Source: Candidatus Korarchaeum cryptofilum OPF8 (GTDB lineage Archaea > Korarchaeota > Korarchaeia > Korarchaeales > Korarchaeaceae). From it: DNA of 32,000 bases. The notes under the pieces were generated by a model. The model saw nothing but the letters and a program-made list of their open reading frames with translations. It did not search any database and was not told the DNA's origin. Shown here piece after piece: positions 535-14,546 of the stretch. Position 1 is the stretch's first letter. Every line of letters starts with the position of its first letter. A program made the position numbers and the translations under genes. The stretch is taken from NCBI RefSeq assembly GCF_000019605.1, contig NC_010482.1:900001-932000 (forward strand). Direction: 5' to 3'.

Positions 535-596
535 GCTGAGAGGGAGCGAGGCTATGAGCCGAAGTTTTCGTCCTATAAAATGGGAGGTAAGTGAAG

Positions 597-1610
597 ATGG
601 CTAGCAGTAGGGCCGGTCTTCCAACGAGATTTGAGGAAATACCAACTAAAATCACTGTTTTGGGCGTTGGAGGAGCAGGAATAAAGGCTATTGATAGCTT
701 AGCAAGATCTGGAATGGAATTGGCGAAATTAGTCGCTTTAGACTCTGATCTGAATGCCCTAAGGCAGGTCAAGGCACATGAGATCATCCAGGTCGGGGAG
801 AATACGCTTAGGGGGAGAGGAAGCGGAGGAGATATAAGCCTAGCCCAGAAAGCAGTCGATGAGGATTTAGACAAGGTTATAAGGACTCTAGATGTCTGCG
901 ACCTCCTCATAGCTGTAGCTGGACTTGGCGGAGGTATGGGAAGCGGTGGATTGCCATATCTCCTGAGGGCGATAAGGGATCAGTATGGGGATAAAGCCCC
1001 GGCTATGATATCTATCGTAACGATTCCCTTCAGGTATGAAGGGCAGACGAAGATGAAGAATGTCCAGTCGGGATTGAGGGAAATAGTTGTCGTGAACGAT
1101 AGTGTCGTGGTGAACATGAACGATGTCCTCCTTGAGAAATTCGGTGAGATGCCTGCTCAAGTTGCTTACTCGAGGATGGACAATATACTGAAGATGGCCA
1201 TAAATTACATAGTTGAGATGCTGGATCCCAGGGACACTTTGCAGAGGCTCGACTTCCCAGATCTCAAGGGGATGATAGAGAGATCCGGGATAGGGTTCAT
1301 AGGCATAGGTTCCCACAGGAGCGTCAGGAAAGCTGTTGAAAGCGCTATAGATACTAGGTTGCTAGACGCAGAGCCAACTTCAGCCTCAGGTTATCTCCTC
1401 TACATCAAGATACCGCCAACTGCGAGTCTTTCGGAGGTCATAGATGGGCCTAGGCTCATAACGGAGAAGTATGATGTCGAGAGAATTTCATTCGGGGCTA
1501 GATTGAACCCCATGCTCAGAACACCGGAGTCCTTCGTTTACGCTACTGGCGTCGACTCTCCCTTCGTGAAGGAGATGATAGGAGATGTTAAAGAGCTCTT
1601 GAGGGAGTGA
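597..1610 (+). CDS. FtsZ/tubulin-superfamily GTPase, paralog 1 (tail-less, divergent)
   Basis: ORF 591-1610. ATG 597 lies 8 nt after GGAGGT (583-588), and GTG 591 is also in frame. Ordered FtsZ motifs are GVGGAG (T1), ALDSDLNAL, GRGSGGDISLA (T3-like), GLGGGMGSGG (T4 tubulin signature), IVTIPFRYEG, T7 region RLDFPD (1245-1262) and GIGFIGIG at the C-domain start. Confidence 0.9.
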   Translation: MASSRAGLPTRFEEIPTKITVLGVGGAGIKAIDSLARSGMELAKLVALDSDLNALRQVKAHEIIQVGENTLRGRGSGGDISLAQKAVDEDLDKVIRTLDVCDLLIAVAGLGGGMGSGGLPYLLRAIRDQYGDKAPAMISIVTIPFRYEGQTKMKNVQSGLREIVVVNDSVVVNMNDVLLEKFGEMPAQVAYSRMDNILKMAINYIVEMLDPRDTLQRLDFPDLKGMIERSGIGFIGIGSHRSVRKAVESAIDTRLLDAEPTSASGYLLYIKIPPTASLSEVIDGPRLITEKYDVERISFGARLNPMLRTPESFVYATGVDSPFVKEMIGDVKELLRE

Positions 1611-2635
1611 TGAGAATGGCTATCAGGGGAAGGATGGTCGATAGAGGGTTGGAGAGTGTAGAGAAAGCGACCGAGGCCAAGATAAATATAGTGGGCATTG
1701 GAGGATGCGGCAATAACATAATAAGCGCATTTTACAAGAAGTTCCCGAAGAACGTAAAGACGATAGCTGTCAATACTGATTCCGCTGTACTGAAGAAGGC
1801 CGATGCCGATGAGAAGGTCTTAATAGGAAGGTATACTCACAAGGGAAGGGGAGCCCAGGGAGTACCTGATCTAGGGAGAGAGGCGATGGAGGAGGATATA
1901 GAAAGCGTATTAAGAGCTTTGGATGAGAACGTGGGCATCGTTATAGGCATAGCTGGGATGGGAGGCGGAACTGGTTCAGGAGGTCTCCCGGTGCTCATGA
2001 GGGAGATAGGCTTGAGGAAGAGAGAGGTGATAAAGATCTCGGTGGTCACATTACCAATGAGGGAAGAGGGAGAGGAGAGGAAGAGAAATGCCCAATTCTC
2101 ATTGAAGGAGACCTTAGAGGTTTCCGATGTGACTGTCGTAAATGCTAACGACTTAGCTATGGAGAAAGCGAAAAGCGTGGATCTCAACTATGCATTCTCA
2201 ATGGTCAATAGGAAGATAGAGAGGAGCATCTATGCTCTCGTTAAGATGCAGAGCTCAGAGACAGGACCTGGCTACGTTAACGTTGATCTGAGCAATTTCG
2301 CGAGGATATCCTATCAGTCTGGCTTGGGCTTCATAGGAGTGGGGAGAGGTCGCTATATATTCGAGGCTTTCGATGATGCCCTGCAGGATGATTATGCCAA
2401 GTGTGACTTAACGGAGGCCAAGGGAGCGATAATATACTTTGAGGGCAAATCCGTCGACCTGAGGGTGGATCAGATGAGGGAAGCGACTGATATATTGAGC
2501 AGAAGGTACAGGATTCCCACTGTGTTCATGGGAGTCAGGCCTACCTTCGAGTACCCTGATGTGAGGGTCAACCTCCTCGTGACTCAGGTGAGGTCTCACT
2601 ATGTGGATGATTTTTTAGCTGAGTTAGGTTTGTGA
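1607..2635 (+). CDS. FtsZ/tubulin-superfamily GTPase, paralog 2
   Basis: The start overlaps the paralog-1 stop. Candidate starts are GTG 1607, ATG 1610 and ATG 1616, and ATG 1616 has the best spacing to GGGAGTGAT. Motifs are GIGGCGNN, AVNTDSAVL, GRGAQGVPDLG, GMGGGTGSGG, VVTLPMREEG, T7 NVDLSN (2279-2296) and GLGFIGVG. Confidence 0.9.
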   Translation: MMRMAIRGRMVDRGLESVEKATEAKINIVGIGGCGNNIISAFYKKFPKNVKTIAVNTDSAVLKKADADEKVLIGRYTHKGRGAQGVPDLGREAMEEDIESVLRALDENVGIVIGIAGMGGGTGSGGLPVLMREIGLRKREVIKISVVTLPMREEGEERKRNAQFSLKETLEVSDVTVVNANDLAMEKAKSVDLNYAFSMVNRKIERSIYALVKMQSSETGPGYVNVDLSNFARISYQSGLGFIGVGRGRYIFEAFDDALQDDYAKCDLTEAKGAIIYFEGKSVDLRVDQMREATDILSRRYRIPTVFMGVRPTFEYPDVRVNLLVTQVRSHYVDDFLAELGL

Positions 2636-2644
2636 GTTGGGGGG

Positions 2645-2953
2645 ATGGATATGTTCCGTAGGAAGAAAGAGGAAGAGAAATCGCCTGCTCAACCTCCCGT
2701 TCAACCTCCTGTTCAGCCTGAGCCTCGAGTATCCGTTGCTGAGCTGGTTAACAGGTACTTAGATGAGAACAAGGGAGAGGTCTCACTCGCATGGTTCGCG
2801 AGGCAGGAGAAGTTCCCATATATACCTCCCCTATTAGCGGTCAAGGAATACGTTGAGGCGAAGGGAGGAAGCGTATCAGATATGGAAGAGCTGAGGAGGA
2901 CTTATATGAGGATACTGGAGTCCAAGATGGCATCTATGGGAAGCGCGCTATGA
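2645..2953 (+). CDS. Small operon-embedded protein (102 aa): basic N-terminus, QPPV repeat linker, about 65-aa helical C-terminal domain; function unknown
   Basis: ORF begins 9 nt after the paralog-2 stop and is preceded by GGGGGAT. No competing ORF, and codon usage matches its neighbours. Sequence begins MDMFRRKKEEEKSPAQPPVQPPVQPEP. Confidence 0.7.
   Translation: MDMFRRKKEEEKSPAQPPVQPPVQPEPRVSVAELVNRYLDENKGEVSLAWFARQEKFPYIPPLLAVKEYVEAKGGSVSDMEELRRTYMRILESKMASMGSAL
2690..2719 (+). repeat. In-frame tandem repeat encoding QPPV-QPPV-QP
   Basis: caacctcccgtt (2690-2701) and caacctcctgtt (2702-2713), followed by cagcct. Confidence 0.8.
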
Positions 2954-2964
2954 GGTGAGCTTCA

Positions 2965-3960
2965 ATGATGTCTAGGTCCGAGTTAGCTAGGGCTTCCGAG
3001 CTCTCCGCCCTCAAGATGGTGCTAGTGGGCGTTGGAGGATGCGGTAACAATACAGTGAACAATGTAAAGAGGTACGGTGTCAGAGTTCCAACTGTCGCGG
3101 TCAATACTGACGCTCCCACGCTGCAGAGGATAAGTGCTGACATAAAGATATTGATCGGGGAAGGCGCTCACAAGGGAAGGGGAGCCGCTGGTTCGCCAGA
3201 GCTAGGCAGGCAAATAGCGGAGCAGGATATGGACAAGATATTAGCCCCGCTGAGGGACAAGGAACTCATAATGATAACTGCAGGCATGGGAGGAGGTACA
3301 GGGACAGGAGCTGGACCGACGATAGCTGAAGCTATCAAGGAGAAGTTCCCGGACAAGATAGTCATAGGGATAGTCACTTTACCTTTCACATCTGAGGGGC
3401 CGACTAGGATAAGGAACGCCCAGTGGGGCCTCTCCAGGATGCTCGACTCCGCTGATATGACTGTAGTCAATGCTAACGATTTACTCAAGGAGAGGGCAGG
3501 TAACTTACCAGTTAGCCAGGCTTTCAGGGAAATGGACAAGCTCCTAGTCGATATAATAGATTCTATAGTGGGTCTCCAGGATATAGTACCGCAGCCGGGT
3601 CTCGTGAACATAGATTACAGCAATATGGAAGTCTTAGTGAGGGGCTCTGGCTTGGGCTTCATAGGTATAGGGAGAGGGAGAAGCTCGATGGAAGCTTTCA
3701 GAAATGCATTAGCTGCGAATTACAGCCAGGCAGATATAAGGAACGCTAAGGGAGCTATAGTCTACGTTGAGGGCAATCAATCGCAGCTGGTGATGAGGGA
3801 GCTCGACAGGATACCTCAAATGCTTTCGAGCGATTACAATATAATGAGCATATTCTGGGGAATAAAGCCGAACTGGAAGCTCTATGAACCCAAGATAATG
3901 CTTCTGGCGACTGGAGTTAGATCTGAGCTCGTCGATAGATGGTTACAAGGAGGGATATGA
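2965..3960 (+). CDS. FtsZ/tubulin-superfamily GTPase, paralog 3
   Basis: GAGGTGA precedes ATG 2965. Motifs are GVGGCGNN, AVNTDAPTL, GRGAAGSPELG, GMGGGTGTGAGP, IVTLPFTSEG, T7 NIDYSN (3607-3624) and GLGFIGIG. It is the closest relative of paralog 2, sharing a 19-nt identical stretch at 1837-1855 and 3168-3186. Confidence 0.9.
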   Translation: MMSRSELARASELSALKMVLVGVGGCGNNTVNNVKRYGVRVPTVAVNTDAPTLQRISADIKILIGEGAHKGRGAAGSPELGRQIAEQDMDKILAPLRDKELIMITAGMGGGTGTGAGPTIAEAIKEKFPDKIVIGIVTLPFTSEGPTRIRNAQWGLSRMLDSADMTVVNANDLLKERAGNLPVSQAFREMDKLLVDIIDSIVGLQDIVPQPGLVNIDYSNMEVLVRGSGLGFIGIGRGRSSMEAFRNALAANYSQADIRNAKGAIVYVEGNQSQLVMRELDRIPQMLSSDYNIMSIFWGIKPNWKLYEPKIMLLATGVRSELVDRWLQGGI

Positions 3961-4196
3961 TGATCAAGAGGGAGGAGGTAGTGGGAAAGGAGGTAATAGA
4001 TAGCTCAGGGAGGAGGGTAGGGGTAGTGGATGATGTCGTCATAGATCAGGAGGGAAAGGCTAGCCTCCTCGTCAGGGTGAAGATAGTTAGAGGAGGAAGT
4101 GAGAAAGTCCTGGAGTACACACTCCCCCCATCAAATATTTTAGCTGTTGGTGATGTTGTTTTAGTTAAAGGTATTGTGGAGGTGAGGAGGAAATGA
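3957..4196 (+). CDS. Stand-alone PRC-barrel domain protein (about 79 aa)
   Basis: ATG 3957 overlaps the paralog-3 stop (ATATGATG) and follows GGAGGGA. The longer track ORF starts at 3939. MMIKREEVVGKEVIDSSGRRVGVVDDVVIDQEGKASLLVRV...LPPSNILAVGDVVLV matches the PRC-barrel pattern (G-x-x-V-x-D-x-x-G-x-x-[IV]-G-x-V-x-D-[VL]-x-[IV]-D). Confidence 0.8.
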   Translation: MMIKREEVVGKEVIDSSGRRVGVVDDVVIDQEGKASLLVRVKIVRGGSEKVLEYTLPPSNILAVGDVVLVKGIVEVRRK

Positions 4197-5182
4197 GTTG
4201 GAGGAGAGGAGAGCCCACTTCCCAGCTCAAGCTGGCTGTGGTGGGCATAGGAGGAGCAGGTTGCAACATGATAACGAACATCAAGAGGACCGGCTTCTCG
4301 GATGCGAAGCTGATAGCGGTTAATACCGATGCCGCCTCTCTCAGTGCAACGAAAGCGGATCATAAGGTGCTCGCGGGCGAATCTTTCCTAGGAGGAAGGA
4401 GCGCCAGAACTATAGAGAATGGGAAGAAAGCCATGGAGGCTGTTAAGGAGAACCTGATATCTATGCTGAGCGATAGGGAGCTCATAGTACTCTTAGCTGG
4501 TTTGGGAGGAGGTGCGGGAACAGGAGGAATAGTTACGTTAGCTGAGACGATAAAGGAGAGCTTACCGAATGCCCTAACGATAAGCTACGTTGTTATACCA
4601 TTCGCGAGCGAGGGAGAGGTGAGGATAAACAATGCGAAGTACGGTCTCTCCGAGATAATAGATCTCTCCGATGTCACTTGGGTAGCTTTCAATGATGTGC
4701 TGAAGAGGAAGTTCACGAACATGCCGCTGACTAGGGCATATAAGATGATGGATGATAGGCTCTTCAACGTCATAAGAGGTCTGGCTTCCCTTCAGAACCT
4801 CTCACCGCTTCCGGGGATGCAGAATGTCGATTTTGCGATAATGAAGGAAATTGCCAAGGGATCTGGCTTAGGTTACGCTGGATTCGGGGAAGGGAGGACA
4901 GCAAGAGAGGCATTCGAGTCTTCCTTAGTTGATCCCTTCGGAGATGCTGATCACAAGGGAGCTAAGGGTGTAGTTGGGATACTTGAGTCCACTGAGACAG
5001 CTGTCTCGGTTGAGGGGATGACATACGTTCAGGATGTCCTAACGACTAACCTGGGAATACCTGAGGTCTACTTCGGTCTCAAGCCGAGCATAGAGATGAC
5101 CACTCCCAAGGTCACTGTCTACACATTCGGAGTTAAGTCAAGGATGGTGGAGGACTTCCTGAGTTCTATGGGAGGTGGCTAA
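4193..5182 (+). CDS. FtsZ/tubulin-superfamily GTPase, paralog 4 (most degenerate T3 region)
   Basis: ATGA overlap with the PRC-barrel gene stop. Motifs are GIGGAGCN, AVNTDAASL, GLGGGAGTGG, VVIPFASEG, T7 NVDFAI (4823-4840) and GLGYAGFG. The T3-equivalent reads GGRSARTIENG rather than G-x-G-x-G-x-x-P. Confidence 0.88.
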   Translation: MSWRRGEPTSQLKLAVVGIGGAGCNMITNIKRTGFSDAKLIAVNTDAASLSATKADHKVLAGESFLGGRSARTIENGKKAMEAVKENLISMLSDRELIVLLAGLGGGAGTGGIVTLAETIKESLPNALTISYVVIPFASEGEVRINNAKYGLSEIIDLSDVTWVAFNDVLKRKFTNMPLTRAYKMMDDRLFNVIRGLASLQNLSPLPGMQNVDFAIMKEIAKGSGLGYAGFGEGRTAREAFESSLVDPFGDADHKGAKGVVGILESTETAVSVEGMTYVQDVLTTNLGIPEVYFGLKPSIEMTTPKVTVYTFGVKSRMVEDFLSSMGGG

Positions 5183-5185
5183 GCA

Positions 5186-6157
5186 ATGTCAGGAGCTCCT
5201 GAGGGTGCCAGGGTAACGATGACGGTCGTAGGTGTAGGAGGGGCCGGTTGCAATACTTTAAACAGACTCAAGGAAGTAGGTGCGCCCGTAAAGACGATAG
5301 CAATACATACCGAAGCTAATCATCTAAAGGCGATCAAATCCGATGTCAAGCTTCTCGTCGGGGAAACAGTAACTGGCGGTTTCGGTAGCGGAGGCAACCC
5401 CAATGTGGGTGAGAGAGCTATAATGGCGGATCTGGATAGGATAATGGCAGCTATAGGTAGGCCGCACGTCCTCATAGTGACTGGAGGGCTAGGAGGAGGA
5501 ACCGCTTCGGGAGGAATTGCGCCTATACTCTCGGCAGTTAGGGACAGGTTCCCCGATGTCATAAGGATAGCTTTGGTCTCCTTCCCCTTCTCTTGGGAGG
5601 GGTTGGGAAAGGTAAATAACGCTAGATATGGCCTCTCGAGGATAATGGGGGTAGCGGATCTCACGATAGTGAACTTAAACGATATATTGAGCAGGAAGAT
5701 CGGGTACATACAGGTTCAATATGCATTCAAGTACGCTGACTCACTGCTAGCAGCTGTCATCTCAGATCTCGCTAACCTGTTCTACATGCCCCATGTGGTC
5801 AGCATAAGCTTCGCTGACTTCGAGGCTGTCGTTAGAGAGGCTGGCTTAGGTGCCGTAGGGCTTGGAGTCGGCGGAAGGGTTGCCGATGCAGCGAAGACAG
5901 CCCTAGGGAACATATTGCTCGACGCTGAGATAAAAGAAGCTGACTCCGCGCTAGTTTACTTGCAGGCGACTCCCAATACGAGCTTAGAGGAGGCTGGCTC
6001 TGCTACCAAGCTCCTAACTGAGGATTACCTCCTCGAGAGGGTCTACTGGGGATTCAGGATAGCTGAAGATCTCAACGAGCCCAGGATAACTATAATAGCC
6101 TCGGGCGTGAGGTCCCCAACGCTAGAAGGTCTGCTCGGGATCTCGGCCACTAGATAA
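5186..6157 (+). CDS. FtsZ/tubulin-superfamily GTPase, paralog 5
   Basis: Starts 3 nt after the paralog-4 stop, with GGAGGTGG upstream. Motifs are GVGGAGCN, AIHTEANHL, GGFGSGGNPNVG, GLGGGTASGG, VSFPFSWEG, T7 SISFAD (5801-5818) and GLGAVGLG. Confidence 0.88.
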   Translation: MSGAPEGARVTMTVVGVGGAGCNTLNRLKEVGAPVKTIAIHTEANHLKAIKSDVKLLVGETVTGGFGSGGNPNVGERAIMADLDRIMAAIGRPHVLIVTGGLGGGTASGGIAPILSAVRDRFPDVIRIALVSFPFSWEGLGKVNNARYGLSRIMGVADLTIVNLNDILSRKIGYIQVQYAFKYADSLLAAVISDLANLFYMPHVVSISFADFEAVVREAGLGAVGLGVGGRVADAAKTALGNILLDAEIKEADSALVYLQATPNTSLEEAGSATKLLTEDYLLERVYWGFRIAEDLNEPRITIIASGVRSPTLEGLLGISATR

Positions 6158-6162
6158 ACTAC

Positions 6163-6176
6163 TTTTTTTCTTTTTT
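6163..6176 (+). terminator. Oligo-T terminator of the FtsZ-paralog operon
   Basis: T7-C-T6 begins 6 nt after the TAA at 6155-6157. It is the first oligo-T tract after seven tightly packed genes. Confidence 0.65.
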
Positions 6177-6263
6177 GTCCGCAACTTTGGAAATTTTGCA
6201 GGAATCCTACCCGAAATTTGGAGCGAATATTTTTATCTCGGTCAGGCATTCTCATCCGGAATC

Positions 6264-7172
6264 ATGGCTTCGGATGAGGATTCCAGCAGGATTGAACTGA
6301 GCGTTAATAAGGCACCACCGCTCTACCCTGTGAAGCTTAGCCTCGAGATGAGGCAGGAACTTGTCGTTAGATCGCTTAAAGTGAGCAATTATATAAGCAT
6401 AGCTAAGGAGACAGGCATCCCCTTAGCTAAGGTAATGAAGATAATGTCGACGCCCAGCTCACCTATGCCCCTCGCCCTAGTTTTGAAACTAGCTGAACTC
6501 GCTAGAATAGATCTATGGGACGTCCTCCGATCTATCGAGGGCATGGGCATAAGGAAGTTCCTTAAGCCCAATTTCGATGTTGAAGCCGCGGCTTCCTTCA
6601 TAGGTTATGCCGTCTCGAGCAGCTCGAAGTTCAAGGTGGGAAGGGGAAATGTAACCGTATCCCTGAGGTACGATGATGATTTCCAGCTCTCACACATCAT
6701 AGATCTATCTAAGAGGATCCTGAACATAGAGGCGTCGGATATCTCCATCAATAGGAGGGAGAGGAAGGTCTATCTATTATCTCAGTTCGGCGTTATATTG
6801 CTCCTCTTTGGAGCTCCGACGAAGAGAGAGTTTTACGATGGCTGGGAGATCCCATGTTGGCTTGAGAGGTACCCATCCCATTTCCTGAAGACTTTCCAGA
6901 GCGGAAGGTTATTCAGGAGCGTGCCCTCTAGGGGATGCGCTAGGTTCTACTTCAAGACGTTCAACATGGAGGGGATGCTCAAGTTCATAGAGAGGCTCAG
7001 AGGCTTATACGCGAGGGTAGGGGTTAATATGGAGGAGAGGCCCAGGCTACTCTCAGATAACATAATATACATCGAGATATGCAGGAGAGCAGTCCTCGAG
7101 GCTCTGCTTTACTCGATAGGCTTCACGTCTCAAAGAAAAATAAGGGAGATTTCCCAGCTCCTGGGGAGATAG
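6264..7172 (+). CDS. Hypothetical protein with an N-terminal helix-turn-helix and a possible degenerate LAGLIDADG-like domain
   Basis: 302-aa ORF. A TATA-like atatttttatc lies about 27 nt upstream of the ATG, suggesting a leaderless transcript. The HTH-like segment is VSNYISIAKETGIPLAKVMKIM. AASFIGYAVSSSSKF resembles a LAGLIDADG helix but lacks the acidic residues. Confidence 0.6.
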   Translation: MASDEDSSRIELSVNKAPPLYPVKLSLEMRQELVVRSLKVSNYISIAKETGIPLAKVMKIMSTPSSPMPLALVLKLAELARIDLWDVLRSIEGMGIRKFLKPNFDVEAAASFIGYAVSSSSKFKVGRGNVTVSLRYDDDFQLSHIIDLSKRILNIEASDISINRRERKVYLLSQFGVILLLFGAPTKREFYDGWEIPCWLERYPSHFLKTFQSGRLFRSVPSRGCARFYFKTFNMEGMLKFIERLRGLYARVGVNMEERPRLLSDNIIYIEICRRAVLEALLYSIGFTSQRKIREISQLLGR

Positions 7173-7451
7173 TCACTTGATCTTATTCATTATTGATTGC
7201 TTAATCCCCTCTAAGTCCTGAACCAAGGCCTTTCTATCGTCTGGATCCAGCTCCTCTAGGCTTCCATAGTTCTGCTTGAGGTAATCTATCCAGGAGTTGG
7301 GTATCTCCTTGTCCTCCTCCTCAAGCATCTCATTCAGCCTCTGGAGCTCCCTTATCAGATCCGCTACTTTGGGCTTGGAGTAGATGAGCTTATCCTCAAC
7401 GGACTGAATGAACTCGCCGAGCTTGAAGGATAATCTGGGGTCTGAGTACAT
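7173..7451 (-). CDS. Small acidic helical hypothetical protein (92 aa)
   Basis: ORF lies 4 nt downstream of the 7456-8787 gene on the same strand. Its stop abuts the stop of the convergent 6264-7172 gene with no spacer. Confidence 0.6.
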   Translation of the reverse strand: MYSDPRLSFKLGEFIQSVEDKLIYSKPKVADLIRELQRLNEMLEEEDKEIPNSWIDYLKQNYGSLEELDPDDRKALVQDLEGIKQSIMNKIK

Positions 7452-7455
7452 CCTC

Positions 7456-8787
7456 TCACCCTGTTGGGGGCTTTATCACTATGCTAACCTCCTCCTTCTC
7501 CTTCCTCCTCTTGTATATCAGGAAGCCAGCTACAGCTATTACTACTATAACCACGGCTATCACAGCTATCATTATGTTCCTCTGCTTCTCTTCCTCCATC
7601 CTCTTGATCATCTCCTTCTGTTCAGTTACGTAAGACTTCGCCTCATTGCTCAGATTCTCTATGCTATTTAAGATGGAGTTGGCCGTCTGATTAGCCCCTG
7701 AAAGGTCTCCAGCTGACCACTTCTCATATACCGCTCTCTTCTCCGAGTTGAGCCTCGAGACCTCATTATAGAACTTATCCAAGGATATGTTGGGCTCGCT
7801 CTTCCTCGTCTCCTCGAGATATGATGCGAATTGAGATAACTTCGTCTCAACAACCACTAGCTTTGAAACGAAGCTCATGTAGTCGTTTATCTTCCTCTCA
7901 ATCGCTTCGAGCTGGCTTAAGGCTTCCTCACTAGCTCCCCTATCTATCATAGCCTTCACGCTCTCAAGGCTCTTGTTGATGCCACTCGCGACATTCAAGA
8001 GCGTTGATGAATCTCCTCCCACCCTATCTAAATCGCCTTTCATGTTCACGAAGCTGGAGAGCTTAGATCTGACTTCCTCATATTTCCTCTTCGCTAAGGA
8101 GGGAGATGAGAGCCAGGAGAAGAGTTCTTTAGTGAATAACTTGTTATCCTTCTGAGAGAGAAGAGCCCCGCTGAAGAAATCTACTGAGGATACGACTACC
8201 CTTCCCATCCCGTAGTTCTGTCCCACCATCAAGACTAGGTTACTCTGACGCGGGTCCGTCTCAGTGAACCTCCCATTCTTATCCCTATCTATCCATACTT
8301 CCTTACTGATCAGGAACCTCGGCAAGTTAGCTGAGAGGCTCAATGAACTCCCTTTGACTATCACTTCTCTTGAGTACTTGAAGTAAGTCGAGTTAACGGT
8401 GGCCTCGAATGGGTCGCAACCGCCTATGACCTTTATCGTGCACAGAGGATCGTCGGTAGACATAGCATTGAATACTGCGCTCACGGCGTTCCTGACTATT
8501 AGTAGGGAGTGACCAGCTCTCACATAAGAGTCCAGCTGGCTGATCTCACCCTCGCTCAATGGAGCAGTTTGGTTCACGATCACCAATATATCTATATCCT
8601 CGGATACGGTATCAACATCCTTAACTATGTAGCCCTCGCTCTCAAGTAGCTTCTTTAGCTCCGGGAACTTTGCAGAGGAAAGTCCGTGCTTCTTATCGAA
8701 TCCCACTGTAATGCTTCCTTGAGACTCGGCCATTACAGGTGCAAGTAGTATTAGAAGCGCTAATAGGACTACAATTCTTTCTCTCAT
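7456..8787 (-). CDS. Secreted, C-terminally membrane-anchored protein: signal peptide, alpha/beta domain (DUF4350/GldG-like by eye), long coiled coil, TM anchor
   Basis: ATG at 8787 is preceded by GGTGGAGGTGATC, a near-perfect anti-16S SD. The track ORF extends to 8886 without support. N-terminus MRERIVVLLALLILLAPVMAES is a signal peptide. C-terminus IMIAVIAVVIVVIAVAGFLIYKRRKEKE is a TM anchor followed by basic residues. Confidence 0.75.
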   Translation of the reverse strand: MRERIVVLLALLILLAPVMAESQGSITVGFDKKHGLSSAKFPELKKLLESEGYIVKDVDTVSEDIDILVIVNQTAPLSEGEISQLDSYVRAGHSLLIVRNAVSAVFNAMSTDDPLCTIKVIGGCDPFEATVNSTYFKYSREVIVKGSSLSLSANLPRFLISKEVWIDRDKNGRFTETDPRQSNLVLMVGQNYGMGRVVVSSVDFFSGALLSQKDNKLFTKELFSWLSSPSLAKRKYEEVRSKLSSFVNMKGDLDRVGGDSSTLLNVASGINKSLESVKAMIDRGASEEALSQLEAIERKINDYMSFVSKLVVVETKLSQFASYLEETRKSEPNISLDKFYNEVSRLNSEKRAVYEKWSAGDLSGANQTANSILNSIENLSNEAKSYVTEQKEMIKRMEEEKQRNIMIAVIAVVIVVIAVAGFLIYKRRKEKEEVSIVIKPPTG

Positions 8788-9226
8788 GATTAAGATCACC
8801 TCCACCCCGCGCACGGGTGGACATTTAGTTGCCCTAGTGAGGAATAATAAAAATGTTGATGGAGCTTCGTATACTCCCTCATTCAACTCAGTCCTGAGTC
8901 AAAGCTCTTATCATTATTGTAGCACATACCTTCGGATGGAGAGTATTCATCTTTGAAGGAGCTCATAAAGGGAGAGAGCCTCTAAATGGTTGAGGATGTC
9001 AAGATGAGGTTTCAAGATGAACAGCGAGGATCTGAAGATCTACTAAAGGCTGTATAAATGGCTTAAATAGAGCCCTTTGCATAAGGTTCCCTCCCGGACA
9101 ATTTTCTATTAGCTTAATGCGAACTAATTCTTTCATTCGGAGTTGAAAAATAGGTAGGACCTTCCGATTACCCCTCTATTATAATTCGATAGGTCCCTTT
9201 TTCTTGCAATCATTCCCATTAGAATC

Positions 9227-9461: not shown

Positions 9462-10067
9462 TTAAGCTTTGACCTTAGCCTCGGCATATGATTGAATGGA
9501 TCTGCTCATTATGTCAGCTCTCACGGTCTTAAGGAAGTGAATGAATGCTTCTTGAACGCCATCCCCTCGTAAAGCTGAGATGGGGATAACTTCCGCTTCC
9601 ATCCCCAGGAGGCCCTTTATCACATCCGGGGGCTTAGCATCCGGGAGATCCTGTTTATTTGCCAGGACCAGGAATGGGAATCCCGGGGGGAGGACTTCTC
9701 TAGCTTCCTGATACTGGCCGAGAGCGTAGACCAGTTGAACGGGTTGAGTACTATCTACTATCATTATTACGCCATCCTTACCTTTCACCAGCGCCTTCCT
9801 GACGTAAGAGAACGCGATCTGCCCCGGAGTTCCCGTAAGCGTGACCTTCCATATCTCATTGAAGGGATCTAAATTCTCTATACTCTCCTTAGGGTAAAGC
9901 TCGTTCTTCGTAGCATCCCAGAAGATTATTCCGTAATCGAAACCAACGGTTGTGGATAGAGTACCTTTCTCATAATCCATCCTCACAGCAGAAGGATCCA
10001 GCTTCCTTATGAAAGTGCTCTTTCCCGCTTGATGAGGACCTATTATAGCTAGGGAGATCTTCCTCAT
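9462..10067 (-). CDS. MglA-type small Ras-superfamily GTPase
   Basis: G1 is GPHQAGKST and the switch-I Thr sits in STTVGFDYG. G3 is TGTPGQ, with Thr replacing the DxxGQ Asp as in the MglA family. G4 is NKQD and G5 is ISALRG. A 4-nt ATGA overlap joins it to the upstream 528-aa gene. Confidence 0.85.
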   Translation of the reverse strand: MRKISLAIIGPHQAGKSTFIRKLDPSAVRMDYEKGTLSTTVGFDYGIIFWDATKNELYPKESIENLDPFNEIWKVTLTGTPGQIAFSYVRKALVKGKDGVIMIVDSTQPVQLVYALGQYQEAREVLPPGFPFLVLANKQDLPDAKPPDVIKGLLGMEAEVIPISALRGDGVQEAFIHFLKTVRADIMSRSIQSYAEAKVKA

Positions 10068-11650
10068 CCCTTAGCACCTAGCTGCATCTTTACCTCATTC
10101 ACCCTAGATTTGAGCTGGGATATCAGCTCCCTGTACTCAGAGATCCTTCCCATCATGAATAAGGACTTCGCCCTCTCGAAGTCCTCTCTGATCCTCTTTA
10201 TGCCCATATCATCCAAATTTGGGAGCATTACTCCTAAATCAGATACCATATCCTCTATTACCTCTATTTCCATCTCCAATTTCCTCATGTCCTCAGGGAT
10301 TATCCTCATGGCTACCTTATCCTCGTTAACGACCACTATCCCCTCATCAGCTAGGTTCCTGAGGACCCAAGGCCTCCAGCTCCCGGGAATGAACTTCAAG
10401 TCTTGGAGAGATATTTCCCCTCTCTCCCTGAGAAGTGATATTATTTTTTCCCTCCATTTCGGATATAGCTCCAATATTTCACTCATTACCCCAGTATAGC
10501 CGACCGTCTCGGGCATCCCGTAAGAGAGCCTTGAGGCTCTGAGGCAGTTGTTGAGGCTATCCAAGAAAGACTCCGTTGAATCTAATGAGATCTTGCTTAG
10601 ATCTAGCTTTGCATCCTTAGGGATATACTCCAGCTCATCTATGACGCTCTTAATTAGCGAACTTATCCTGTTTAACCTTTCAACCTCCCTCCTCAGGGAT
10701 TCTATATGTATTCTAGATCTTATGAGGAGGGGTATCTTGGGGAAATCCAACCCTATATAGGGAATTATCTCCTTGAACCTTCTGAGCTCCGCTATCCCCT
10801 CCATCCTCTCTAAGAGATCTCCCTTCATCTCCTCAATACTAGCCTTCAGATCTATCAACTTTTGGGAAATTTGAATCAGCTTCTTGGAATCATTCTCAAC
10901 TTCTGCAAGCCTGGAGGTGATATTCTTCAAATATTTCTGCAGGATCCCTTCCTCGACCTCTTGAAGCCTCTCAATAAATCTCTCTCGCAATTCTAAATAA
11001 TGTGAGAGTCTTTCATATCTCACTCCCATCAGATCTAGCTCTTCTTCAATTGATCTCAATTTTTCGAATGCTTCGTTTAGAGATGATATAGCTTCCTCCT
11101 TTATCTTCCTCTGCTCCTCTTTAGGCTCAACTTTCTGCTCCTGGACTTCTTTATGAATCTCGGATTTCTTTAAGATCCTCAAGAAGCTCAGAGCTGCTGG
11201 TATCTCCTCATAACTCCTCAGTTCCTCTATATCTAGCCCCTTTTCACGTATATATGCATTTACTTTGGTGACGAGCTCCCTCTCCAGAGAGTTAACTTCC
11301 TCGAGCGTGACCTCCAGGATCCTCCTTACTTCCTTAATCTTCCCCTTATCCCTGAGGAAGGGCCTCATATAAGCCGGATCCCCTATTAGGCTTGTCACTA
11401 TCCCCTTCACGGACTGGAATAGCAGATTTGCTCTGTTCGATATATCCTCCCCGCTCCCTATTTCCTTTTCGACCTCCGGAGAGATTTCTCCCAGCTTCTT
11501 CACCTTCTCCAGTATTTTCTCGAGTAGGGGAAATAGTTCATCCTTCTTCATCAAGCTCTCAAGCTTATCTATCTTATCTAAGCCGTATCCAGCCTCCAGC
11601 AGAGAGGCCCTCAGCGCCTCCCATGGGTTCTCCGATTCCATACAATCCAT
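10064..11650 (-). CDS. Large coiled-coil protein (528 aa) with a C-terminal winged-helix-like module; function unknown
   Basis: Long heptad-rich E/K/L/I/R sequence. Near the C-terminus, ISLLRERGEISLQDLKFIPGSWRPWVLRNLADEGIVVVNEDKVAM looks like a wHTH. Translationally coupled to the MglA-type GTPase. The alternative start is ATG 11641. Confidence 0.75.
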   Translation of the reverse strand: MDCMESENPWEALRASLLEAGYGLDKIDKLESLMKKDELFPLLEKILEKVKKLGEISPEVEKEIGSGEDISNRANLLFQSVKGIVTSLIGDPAYMRPFLRDKGKIKEVRRILEVTLEEVNSLERELVTKVNAYIREKGLDIEELRSYEEIPAALSFLRILKKSEIHKEVQEQKVEPKEEQRKIKEEAISSLNEAFEKLRSIEEELDLMGVRYERLSHYLELRERFIERLQEVEEGILQKYLKNITSRLAEVENDSKKLIQISQKLIDLKASIEEMKGDLLERMEGIAELRRFKEIIPYIGLDFPKIPLLIRSRIHIESLRREVERLNRISSLIKSVIDELEYIPKDAKLDLSKISLDSTESFLDSLNNCLRASRLSYGMPETVGYTGVMSEILELYPKWREKIISLLRERGEISLQDLKFIPGSWRPWVLRNLADEGIVVVNEDKVAMRIIPEDMRKLEMEIEVIEDMVSDLGVMLPNLDDMGIKRIREDFERAKSLFMMGRISEYRELISQLKSRVNEVKMQLGAKG

Positions 11651-13643: not shown

Positions 13644-14546
13644 GTGTCGTTCAAGAGGCTCGTTTCAAGTGTATTCGGGCTCTTTAAGAAGCCGACTACT
13701 CTAGTCATTTTAGGATTGGATGGCGCCGGGAAAACGACGATGCTGAATTACTTGCTCACAGGGGAGCCAGGGGTAACCGCACCGACAGTCGGAGCCAATT
13801 TCGAGAAGTTCAAGGTCAAGGAGCTTGAGTTCAACGTATGGGATCTCGGAGGTCAGAAGGCCCTAAGGGGTATGTGGGAGGAGTACGCTGAGAAGGCTGA
13901 TGCGGTAATTTTCGTTCTGGACTCAGCTGATAGGGAGAGATTCCCTGAGGCTAAGGAGGAGCTCTGGAGGATAGTCTCCGTGATAAGGAAGAGTAAGCCT
14001 CTACTCATAATCGCGAATAAGGCTGATCTTGAGAATGCTGCGACAGTAATGGAAGTTATAGAAGCATTGGAATTGACGAAGTTAGAGGGGATGACTTGGC
14101 AGATAGTCTGGGCTAGCGCTTTAACGGGCTTCGGCTTATTCGAGGCCTTCGCATGGATCTATGAGAGGCTGACAGGCAAGGAAGTTTCGCACCCCCTCAG
14201 GATAGAGGATCTGATCGTTTTAGATGATAAAGGGAACCCAATAATTTCAACGAGTTCGACAACTAGCTTGACGCTCAGCGCCTTCGTTTCATTAGTGAGG
14301 AATTATACGACGGAATCTCTCAAAGATATCCCGCAGACGATAGAGATGAGGGACAAGAGATTGATAATAGCGATCAGGGAGGGCCTGATAGGCGCTGCTT
14401 TGGTCCCCCGTTACTCCTCCGAGAGTAAGGTGAAAGCGCTCCTAGTGGATGTCCTCAATAACATAGCGAGGGTCAAGGATAAGGAGAGGGCTAGGGAGGC
14501 CCTCATGGAAGTAATAGAAAAGTACGTTGAGAACGTAGGGACTTGA
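13644..14546 (+). CDS. Arf/Arl/Sar-family-like small GTPase with N-terminal amphipathic helix, fused to a C-terminal Roadblock/longin-type domain (300 aa)
   Basis: GTG start. The nearby ATG at 13642 is out of frame and terminates quickly. N-terminus is MSFKRLVSSVFGLFKK. G1 is GLDGAGKTT, switch I is PTVGANFE, and the interswitch/G3 is FNVWDLGGQ. These are followed by VLDSADRERFPEAKEEL, G4 ANKADLENA and G5 ASALTGFGLFEAFAWI. Residues about 185-300 read as beta-beta-alpha-beta-beta-beta-alpha (IEDLIVLDDKGNPIIST...). Confidence 0.85.
   Translation: MSFKRLVSSVFGLFKKPTTLVILGLDGAGKTTMLNYLLTGEPGVTAPTVGANFEKFKVKELEFNVWDLGGQKALRGMWEEYAEKADAVIFVLDSADRERFPEAKEELWRIVSVIRKSKPLLIIANKADLENAATVMEVIEALELTKLEGMTWQIVWASALTGFGLFEAFAWIYERLTGKEVSHPLRIEDLIVLDDKGNPIISTSSTTSLTLSAFVSLVRNYTTESLKDIPQTIEMRDKRLIIAIREGLIGAALVPRYSSESKVKALLVDVLNNIARVKDKERAREALMEVIEKYVENVGT

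Follow-up and report, generated by a model that had tools for sequence, protein, structure and literature searches.

Group-Specific T7/H8 and T3 Substitutions in the Five FtsZ-Family Paralogs of a Candidatus Korarchaeum cryptofilum Gene Cluster

Five FtsZ-Family Paralogs Lack a Complete T7/H8 Motif

A cluster encoding five FtsZ-family paralogs was analysed in a stretch of 32,000 nucleotides (nt) of the Candidatus Korarchaeum cryptofilum OPF8 genome (contig NC_010482.1, positions 900,001 to 932,000 of the forward strand), which is referred to as the window throughout. The paralogs, labelled P1 to P5, are encoded by five tandem open reading frames (ORFs) of 323–342 amino acids (aa) at 591–6157 on the forward strand of the window. 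The cluster itself has been known since 2008; what appears to be new, judging from the sequence comparisons, is that complementary losses in the T7/H8 motif and in the T3 loop are fixed in the individual orthogroups and map to one early duplication. The canonical T7/H8 motif N-x-D-x-x-D was complete in none of the five paralogs. As a tentative reading, to which somewhat less than an even chance is given, P1–P5 may co-assemble in mixed filaments or oligomers in which the inter-subunit site hydrolysing guanosine triphosphate (GTP) is altered in each orthogroup, and such assemblies would probably be accessory to the divisome.

The initial annotation of the window had listed five hexapeptides homologous to the T7 loop, and translation placed all of them exactly where they had been reported, each in frame within its own ORF on the forward strand. 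In P1 (RLDFPD, 1245–1262), the Asn was replaced by Arg and both Asp residues were present. The second Asp was replaced by Asn in P2 (NVDLSN, 2279–2296) and P3 (NIDYSN, 3607–3624) and by Ile in P4 (NVDFAI, 4823–4840), while in P5 (SISFAD, 5801–5818) Ser occupied the positions of both the Asn and the first Asp and the second Asp was retained. Translation thus agreed with the earlier description, in which only P1 kept both acidic positions, P2, P3 and P4 had lost the second Asp and P5 the Asn and the first Asp; the loss of the T7 Asn in P1 (Arg here, His in the deepest lineage) was found in addition. The three motif positions correspond to N207, D209 and D212 in E. coli numbering (PMC8456036) and to N208, D210 and D213 in S. 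aureus numbering (PMC8936486). The first Asp, which is lost in P5, is a swinging residue.

The register of the motif was checked against M. jannaschii FtsZ (MjFtsZ), and both the alignments and a structure model of P5 identified the five hexapeptides as the counterparts of N-x-D-x-x-D. In a phmmer comparison, NIDYSN of P3 aligned opposite N233-V-D235-F-A-D238 of MjFtsZ. In a MAFFT alignment with MjFtsZ and other archaeal FtsZs, the hexapeptides of all five paralogs shared one column block, which continued gap-free through the G-L-x-x-x-G-x-G motif. In the AlphaFold2 model of P5, SISFAD (residues 206–211) was located in the H7–H8 loop and the first helical turn of H8. Near T7, the orthogroup alignments showed no conserved acidic residue that could compensate.

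Each T7/H8 Variant Is Fixed within Its Own Orthogroup

Orthologous clusters were taken from related metagenome-assembled genomes (MAGs) with the labels Korarchaeum, Thermoproteota and Thermoprotei, down to about 45–55% identity, and 108 archaeal FtsZ matches recovered with P3 were used as the canonical comparison set. N233, D235 and D238 were invariant in all 108 canonical proteins, and the N-D-D combination was present in 123 of 139 diverse FtsZ-family cluster representatives. The substitutions seen in the window proved to be conserved in orthologues, with each T7 variant fixed within its own orthogroup. The P2 orthologues had N-V-D-[L/F]-[S/H]-N (9/9), the P3 orthologues N-x-D-[Y/F]-S-N (11/11) and the P4 orthologues [N/H]-V-D-F-x-[V/I/M/S] (8/8), while S-I-[S/G]-[F/Y]-A-D was found in 7/7 members of the P5 orthogroup and [R/H]-x-D-F-x-D in 7/8 members of the P1 orthogroup. 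The ratio of nonsynonymous to synonymous substitution rates (dN/dS), calculated against close relatives, was 0.017–0.049 for all five paralogs, which indicates strong purifying selection and thus functioning genes rather than relics.

In a neighbour-joining tree, the five orthogroups were recovered with bootstrap values of 90–100 and all five together with a value of 100. The topology was ((P2,P3,P4),(P1,P5)), with bootstrap values of 99 for P2+P3+P4 and 97 for P1+P5. The comparison of sequences across the sampled lineages indicates that the five paralogs predate the divergence of these lineages. The gene order P1-P2-s102-P3-PRC-P4-P5, in which s102 denotes a gene for a 102-aa orphan protein and PRC a gene for a PRC-barrel protein, was kept in the window and in the related loci L004, L005, L012, L013, L016 and L018. 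In L015, the order from P1 to P4 was kept and a P5-like fragment was located upstream on the other strand. All five orthogroups were present in every sampled lineage with a long enough contig.

Several further arrangements were observed in the related genomes. One Thermoprotei MAG (CBDUKN01) carried the full P1–P5 cluster (L012) and a second, partial P3-P4-P5 cluster (L011). In L015, which represents the deepest-branching lineage, two extra, highly divergent tubulin-like genes were located beside the cluster (5472–6407 and 7032–7970, both on the reverse strand), one without a recognisable T4 (DLEEREGK) and the other with R-L-G-V-E-D as its T7. A more distant lineage (L019, 1–2653) had a differing arrangement, in which an FtsZ-like gene with an intact NIDFSD was followed by an s102-like gene of 82 aa, then by a 305-aa paralog (T7 K-P-D-F-P-L, T4 GIGKGMGS) and then by a P5-like gene (G-I-S-Y-A-D).

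The Remaining Part of the Composite Active Site Has Diverged as Well

The active site of FtsZ is composite, as described by Ruiz et al. 2022 for the S. aureus protein, with N208, D210 and D213 given by the top subunit and D46 and Q48 (T2), G72 (T3) and R143 (H5) given by the bottom subunit (PMC8936486). The catalytic water is held by D210 and D213 of the top subunit and by G72 in T3 of the bottom subunit, N208 contacts K+/Mg2+, and the Q48A and R143K substitutions each lower the GTPase activity about 6-fold and stabilise the polymers (PMC8936486).

The T3 Gly (G98 in MjFtsZ, G72 in S. aureus) was found in 108/108 canonical proteins. Among the paralogs of the window, it was present in P1 (GRGSGGDI, 813–836) and P5 (GFGSGGNP, 5378–5401) and was replaced by Gln in P2 (GRGAQGVP, 1844–1867), by Ala in P3 (GRGAAGSP, 3175–3198) and by Arg in P4 (GRSARTIE, 4394–4417), all on the forward strand like the other motifs given below. 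P4 also had Ser at the equivalent of G96, so that the degenerate T3 already noticed in this protein was confirmed. Across the orthogroups, the position was Q/R/Y in P2, A in P3 and A/R/V in P4, and the Gly was kept in P1 and P5. The loss of the T3 Gly and the loss of the H8 Asp hence followed the same split, P2/P3/P4 versus P1/P5, and the two ligands lost in P2/P3/P4 act from opposite sides of the interface, the T3 Gly from the bottom face and the H8 Asp from the top face. The simplest history suggested by these sequences would be a single early duplication, followed by the loss of both water-holding ligands in the stem of P2/P3/P4. A rule by which T7-competent paralogs have a derived pocket and T7-dead paralogs a canonical pocket was considered and dropped, as near-invariant FtsZ columns were lost in all five paralogs and the T3 Gly was lost exactly in the T7-dead clade.

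All five paralogs had been credited with a plausible GTP-binding T1/T4 set, which held strictly for P2 and P3, the only paralogs with an intact tubulin signature GGGTG[ST]G in T4. In P1 (GGGMGSG, 927–947) and P4 (GGGAGTG, 4505–4525), the Thr of the signature was replaced by Met and Ala, respectively, and in P5 (GGGTASG, 5492–5512) a Gly was replaced by Ala, a change that was invariant in all 8 P5 orthologues. In T1 of P1, the invariant Asn was missing in this genome, and the third Gly was Asp or Asn in most other lineages. The T2 of P5 (IHTEAN, 5303–5320) had H-T-E for the invariant N-T-D, P1 and P5 had Lys in place of R169 (R143 in S. aureus) in this genome, and Gln at the position of Q48 was found in 0/5 paralogs. 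As a separate observation, the H7 Asp of P2 (D212 in MjFtsZ; 2189–2191, within FSMVNRK), which contacts the guanine base, was Asn in 3/9 P2 orthologues, all Korarchaeum-like, and Asp in the other lineages.

When ten key positions (three of the top and seven of the bottom subunit) were considered for the residues of the window, no top/bottom pairing of the five paralogs exceeded eight canonical residues. As no pairing rebuilds the canonical site, a clean division into some competent and some locked interfaces is a simplification, and it may be, judging from these residues, that hydrolysis is slow or absent at every interface. The tubulin-like division of labour put forward in the initial annotation could thus be kept in part: the T7 asymmetry is real, ancient and selected, but the site has diverged in its bottom half too and the split is not clean. 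The overall picture is plausibly one of a general dismantling of fast hydrolysis, with P1 providing the sole plausible activator face.

The Paralogs Belong to the FtsZ Clade

All five paralogs matched the Tubulin/FtsZ family PF00091 with 97.5–142.2 bits (cut-off 33) and E values of 1e-27 to 3e-41, and P5 alone among the five passed the cut-off of FtsZ_C (PF12327). In a phmmer search of PDB sequences, P3 matched MjFtsZ (1w58/1fsz) with an E value of 6e-58 and tubulins with about 1e-8. The five paralogs belong to the FtsZ clade and not to the tubulin clade. The AlphaFold2 model of P5 (predicted local distance difference test score, pLDDT, of 93.3; predicted template modelling score of 0.91) showed the full FtsZ fold and was superimposed on MjFtsZ structures with template modelling (TM) scores of 0.87–0.89 and a root-mean-square deviation of 1.8 Å.

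The paralogs were 27–40% identical to one another, which is the same distance as that from MjFtsZ, and about 32–37% identical to canonical FtsZ. Of 89 near-invariant FtsZ columns, 22–30 were lost in each of the five proteins. The tail beyond the core was 10–18 aa long in the five paralogs, compared with a median length of 30 for the canonical archaeal proteins.

The Cluster Forms a Tightly Coupled Seven-Gene Operon

All genes of the cluster are located on the forward strand. P1 (597–1610; PF00091 E 1.4e-29) encodes 337 aa from an ATG at 597, in an ORF that opens with GTG at 591. P2 (1610–2635; 341 aa; PF00091 E 5.4e-34), for which alternative starts were noted at 1607 and 1616, begins in overlap with the P1 stop. 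It is followed by s102 (2645–2953; no Pfam family) and by P3 (2965–3960; 331 aa; PF00091 E 3e-41), the paralog nearest to canonical FtsZ. The PRC-barrel gene (3939–4196), whose product is of the MTH1859/CdpB type and comprises 85 aa, or 78 aa if translated from an ATG at 3960, overlaps the 3' end of P3 and the 5' end of P4. P4 (4193–5182; 329 aa; PF00091 E 5.6e-29) and P5 (5186–6157; 323 aa; PF00091 E 1.5e-27, FtsZ_C E 1.6e-9) complete the cluster. The overlaps amounted to 4 nt for P1/P2, 22 nt for P3/PRC and 4 nt for PRC/P4, and the remaining gaps to 3–11 nt; as read from this arrangement, the seven genes are one tightly coupled operon.

P1–P5 were 100% identical to five Ca. K. cryptofilum OPF8 proteins within ACB07638–ACB07644, with P1 corresponding to ACB07638.1, P2 to ACB07639.1/WP_083758174.1, P3 to ACB07641.1, P4 to ACB07643.1 and P5 to ACB07644.1. 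The exact identity of the five proteins, together with the gene content, shows that the locus is the published seven-gene ftsZ cluster. The cluster of five ftsZ genes with a PRC-barrel/MTH1859-like gene goes back to Elkins et al. 2008 and is cited in two later publications (bioRxiv 10.1101/2023.03.28.534543; PMC3132758), and these cited descriptions cover gene content only.

A candidate promoter/ribosome-binding region upstream of the P1 start (574–588, forward strand) was proposed from the sequence itself and consists of TATAAAA at 574–580 and GGGAGGT at 582–588. Right after the P5 stop, the oligo-T tract TTTTTTTCTTTTTT (6163–6176, forward strand) is a candidate archaeal terminator of the seven-gene operon. 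The intergenic region upstream of P1 (169–596) was unusually long, about 430 nt, with TATA-like A/T-rich stretches at about 481–493 and 574–580, and contained a short inverted repeat formed by GGTTGGTG (513–520) and CACCAACC (527–534). Rfam and tRNA scans revealed neither Rfam families nor tRNAs in the window.

The s102 protein was characterized by a conserved basic N-terminal motif, M-x-[LF]-[FW]-[RG]-R-K-K-K-E-E, a Pro/Glu-rich low-complexity linker and a four-helix domain with an invariant A-W and P-x-x-x-P in the orthologues from L004–L018. In all full clusters, its gene separated P2 from P3. The AlphaFold2 model of s102 had a pLDDT of 80.8, with the four-helix domain confidently predicted. 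No Pfam family and no PDB sequence match was found for s102, and its model gave no significant Foldseek match in PDB (best E value 1.3). The s102 family comprised 26 members in a set of 5.8 billion proteins and was confined to these lineages. At a guess from the sequence, its layout would be that of a membrane tether. The small, single-domain PRC-barrel protein matched PF05239 with 30.2 bits (cut-off 21.2; E 4.7e-7), and its PDB matches were 1pm3 (E 1e-5) and 8onw/8qzo (E 3e-3 to 8e-3).

Among the neighbouring genes, the one following the operon (6264–7172, forward strand) encodes a 302-aa protein without a Pfam family and is also found beside the cluster of related genomes, with its position switched to the other side in L008/L018. 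It is followed on the reverse strand by a 92-aa ORF (7173–7451) and a 476-aa ORF (7456–8886) with weak ABC_transp_aux/DUF4350 matches and a hydrophobic C-terminus that, judged by eye, is probably membrane-anchoring. A few kb downstream of the cluster (13644–14546, forward strand), a 300-aa protein is encoded that combines a strong Arf-family small-GTPase domain (PF00025, E 1.6e-49, residues 9–175) with about 125 further aa at the C-terminus. Another small-GTPase-like ORF (9462–10067, reverse strand; 201 aa) was divergent, showed weak GTP_EFTU/Arf/Ras matches and shares a 4-nt overlap with a 528-aa ORF without a Pfam family (10064–11650, reverse strand).

Other FtsZ and SepF Genes Are Located outside the Cluster

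According to the supplementary table of Pende et al. 2021, K. cryptofilum has two FtsZ proteins, ACB08186.1 and ACB08089.1, a SepF, ACB08158.1, and no ESCRT-III (PMC8178401). A comparison of accessions showed that both of these FtsZ proteins are encoded outside the five-paralog cluster, and neither was found among the best 120 matches of P3. The presence of two further FtsZ genes and a SepF gene elsewhere suggests that a conventional FtsZ-SepF divisome probably exists besides the five paralogs. For the five-paralog set, the part of an accessory cytoskeleton or of a modulator of division is therefore more likely than that of the core polymer. As K. cryptofilum cells are ultrathin filaments (PMC7613921), a role of the paralogs in cell shape is conceivable.

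Mixed Filaments and Alternative Explanations

In the proposed co-assembly, mixed filaments or oligomers of the FtsZ type would arise by head-to-tail association of P1–P5. A competent site for the catalytic water would be missing from most longitudinal interfaces, so that GTP would be held stably there, and hydrolysis would occur only at interfaces with P1 as the top subunit and perhaps weakly at those topped by P5. Unlike a treadmilling Z-ring, this polymer would be slow or static. The role of adaptors would fall to s102, whose basic N-terminus might be a membrane anchor, and to the PRC-barrel protein, as it does to CdpB1 and CdpB2 at the Haloferax division ring via SepF (bioRxiv 10.1101/2023.03.28.534543). 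The strict conservation of each altered T7 implies that this surface is still in use, and translational coupling, the fixed gene order and the recurrence of all five genes are what a hetero-oligomer would predict.

Several observations weigh against such co-assembly. In S. aureus, each of the N208L, D210N and D213N substitutions abolishes assembly and not just hydrolysis (PMC8936486), and these effects of single T7 changes, together with the T7-less FtsZ of Nitrosopumilus maritimus, mean that some of the paralogs may not polymerise. The P1 orthologue in L013 had Asn at the second acidic position. The divergence of the bottom half of the composite site in T3, T2, R169 and T4 counts here as well, and since P1, P4 and P5 deviate from the tubulin signature in their pocket motifs, GTP binding by these proteins is itself uncertain. 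Partial clusters occur, P3-P4-P5 in L011 and P2-P3 alone in L014, and these gene arrangements hint at sub-modules; subsets of the paralogs may function alone. The phylogeny was obtained by neighbour-joining only. With other FtsZ and SepF genes elsewhere in the genome, the paralogs may not be a division polymer at all.

A more specific form of co-assembly, which we consider rather unlikely in its full detail, would be an ordered heteropolymer of the FtsZ clade, with structural, non-hydrolysed GTP at most longitudinal interfaces and catalysis only at the P1-topped, possibly also the P5-topped, ones. Such a polymer, with the PRC-barrel protein and the perhaps membrane-targeted s102 as adaptors of its own, would be an independent prokaryotic reinvention of the logic of alpha/beta-tubulin. 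One duplication would have given rise to an 'activator' lineage, P1/P5, and a 'non-activator' lineage, P2/P3/P4.

The paralogs could instead form independent, sub-functionalised homopolymers, GTP-bound, stable and hydrolysis-dead in the case of P2, P3 and P4 and dynamic in the case of P1, with T7 tuning the turnover and not defining heterotypic interfaces. At 27–40% identity, the surfaces of the paralogs have had time to become self-specific, and the partial clusters in L011 and L014 would fit such independence. Liao and co-workers are also said to have reported in 2021 that haloarchaeal FtsZ1 and FtsZ2 play distinct roles. This explanation is nevertheless unlikely in view of the translational coupling and of the occurrence of all five genes in a fixed order in every lineage represented by a long enough contig. 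Furthermore, a homopolymer of P2, P3 or P4 would have neither half of the water site (D238, G98), and D213N by itself stops assembly in S. aureus (PMC8936486).

Another explanation, which seems distinctly improbable, is that the five proteins co-assemble in sub-stoichiometric amounts with the canonical FtsZ1/FtsZ2 polymer, as cappers or modulators that bind by their intact faces, block hydrolysis or elongation by their defective T7 faces and are linked to SepF by the PRC-barrel protein. E. coli FtsZ with mutations in the bottom-face T7 was reportedly found to be dominant-negative by Redick and colleagues in 2005. The two further FtsZ proteins and the SepF listed for the genome outside the cluster (PMC8178401) would provide the targets, and one preprint describes the Haloferax PRC-barrel proteins CdpB1/2 as acting at the division ring via SepF (bioRxiv 10.1101/2023.03.28.534543). 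Nevertheless, five conserved, co-ordered paralogs exceed what a capper needs, their identity to canonical FtsZ is only about 32–37%, and their tails (10–18 aa versus a median of 30) contain no evident SepF-binding peptide.

It is less probable still that the paralogs are non-polymerising GTP-binding proteins with some other role, of the kind proposed for the thaumarchaeal FtsZ homologue, and that the T7 changes reflect a lost polymer GTPase function. The N. maritimus FtsZ, which is without the NVDFAD loop, does not polymerise (PMC3684127), and the departures in T1, T2, T3 and T4 of P1, P4 and P5 would agree with such a role. On the other hand, the full FtsZ fold is kept, as seen in the P5 model (TM 0.87–0.89), the T7 variants are strictly conserved per group, as expected of a surface in use, dN/dS is very low, and the PRC-barrel link points to FtsZ-type biology. 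Finally, a register shift hiding an intact N-x-D-x-x-D, or the decay of duplicated genes, has next to no chance of explaining the pattern and was excluded by the gap-free alignment of all five paralogs from T7 to G-L-x-x-x-G-x-G, the concurring placement in the P5 model, the lack of a conserved acidic residue nearby that could compensate, and a dN/dS of 0.02–0.05 with ORFs intact in many genomes.

Comparison with Known Systems

Beta-tubulin keeps the N-x-D of T7 but has the non-acidic K254, and one hydrolysing and one GTP-locked interface results. In alpha-tubulin, E254 has a catalytic role together with D251 (PMC10319017). The korarchaeal proteins resemble this pair in being paralogous GTPases of the same superfamily of which some carry the catalytic acid after the N-x-D of T7 and some do not. 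P2/P3/P4 follow the beta-like pattern, with N-x-D kept and the last acid gone (N, N and I/V/M/S), and P1/P5 keep the acid; as in the tubulins, the split into acid-keeping and acid-lost proteins traces to a single early duplication. The korarchaeal case differs in that it belongs to the FtsZ clade, comprises five paralogs and not two, and has a diverged bottom-subunit half.

T7 point mutants of canonical FtsZ concern identical positions, at which mutation removes GTPase activity (PMC8936486; PMC8456036). Those changes were engineered and mostly lead to a failure to assemble, whereas the korarchaeal changes arose naturally and long ago, are specific to each group and are maintained by purifying selection. 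Haloarchaeal FtsZ1 and FtsZ2 both retain the catalytic T7 residues. Together with CdpB1/CdpB2 and SepF they form a system that likewise combines several FtsZ paralogs with small PRC-barrel proteins (bioRxiv 10.1101/2023.03.28.534543). In contrast to the korarchaeal genes, they are not known to be located in one operon with a PRC gene.

Chloroplast FtsZ1 and FtsZ2 also both retain the catalytic T7 aspartates, and BtubA/B are members of the tubulin clade. BtubA/B structures were among the PDB matches of P3. Both chloroplast FtsZ1/FtsZ2 and BtubA/BtubB are superfamily paralog pairs that co-assemble and tune polymer stability. The FtsZ homologue of the TACK archaeon N. maritimus is also without the NVDFAD T7 motif (PMC3684127). 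It is a single, non-polymerising protein that is without the GTP-binding signature as well, whereas in K. cryptofilum five co-inherited paralogs carry complementary conserved variants.

In the course of the comparison, three proteins of 744–840 aa (P0141, P0142 and P0143) were found to contain two complete tandem FtsZ domains, each with canonical T1/T4/T7, and may be genuine fusions or products of faulty gene calling. They were considered as natural fusions of the korarchaeal paralogs and rejected, since they belong to a different family and have a canonical T7 in both halves. No literature joining Korarchaeota, FtsZ and the T7 loop was found in a search that did not cover the 2008 genome description, in which a prior remark on T7 is possible.

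Significance

If the five proteins act separately, they are a well-documented example of sub-functionalised paralogs of the FtsZ type, in a cluster that was known before. If they co-assemble, they would be a natural FtsZ-clade case of partitioned catalytic and structural nucleotide sites, which among the systems compared are otherwise found only in tubulin-clade heterodimers. The cluster would then offer a tractable, thermostable system for the evolution of an obligate heteromeric, partly GTP-locked polymer from a homopolymer, and it would show the role of multi-paralog FtsZ cytoskeletons in an ultrathin filamentous archaeon without ESCRT-III.

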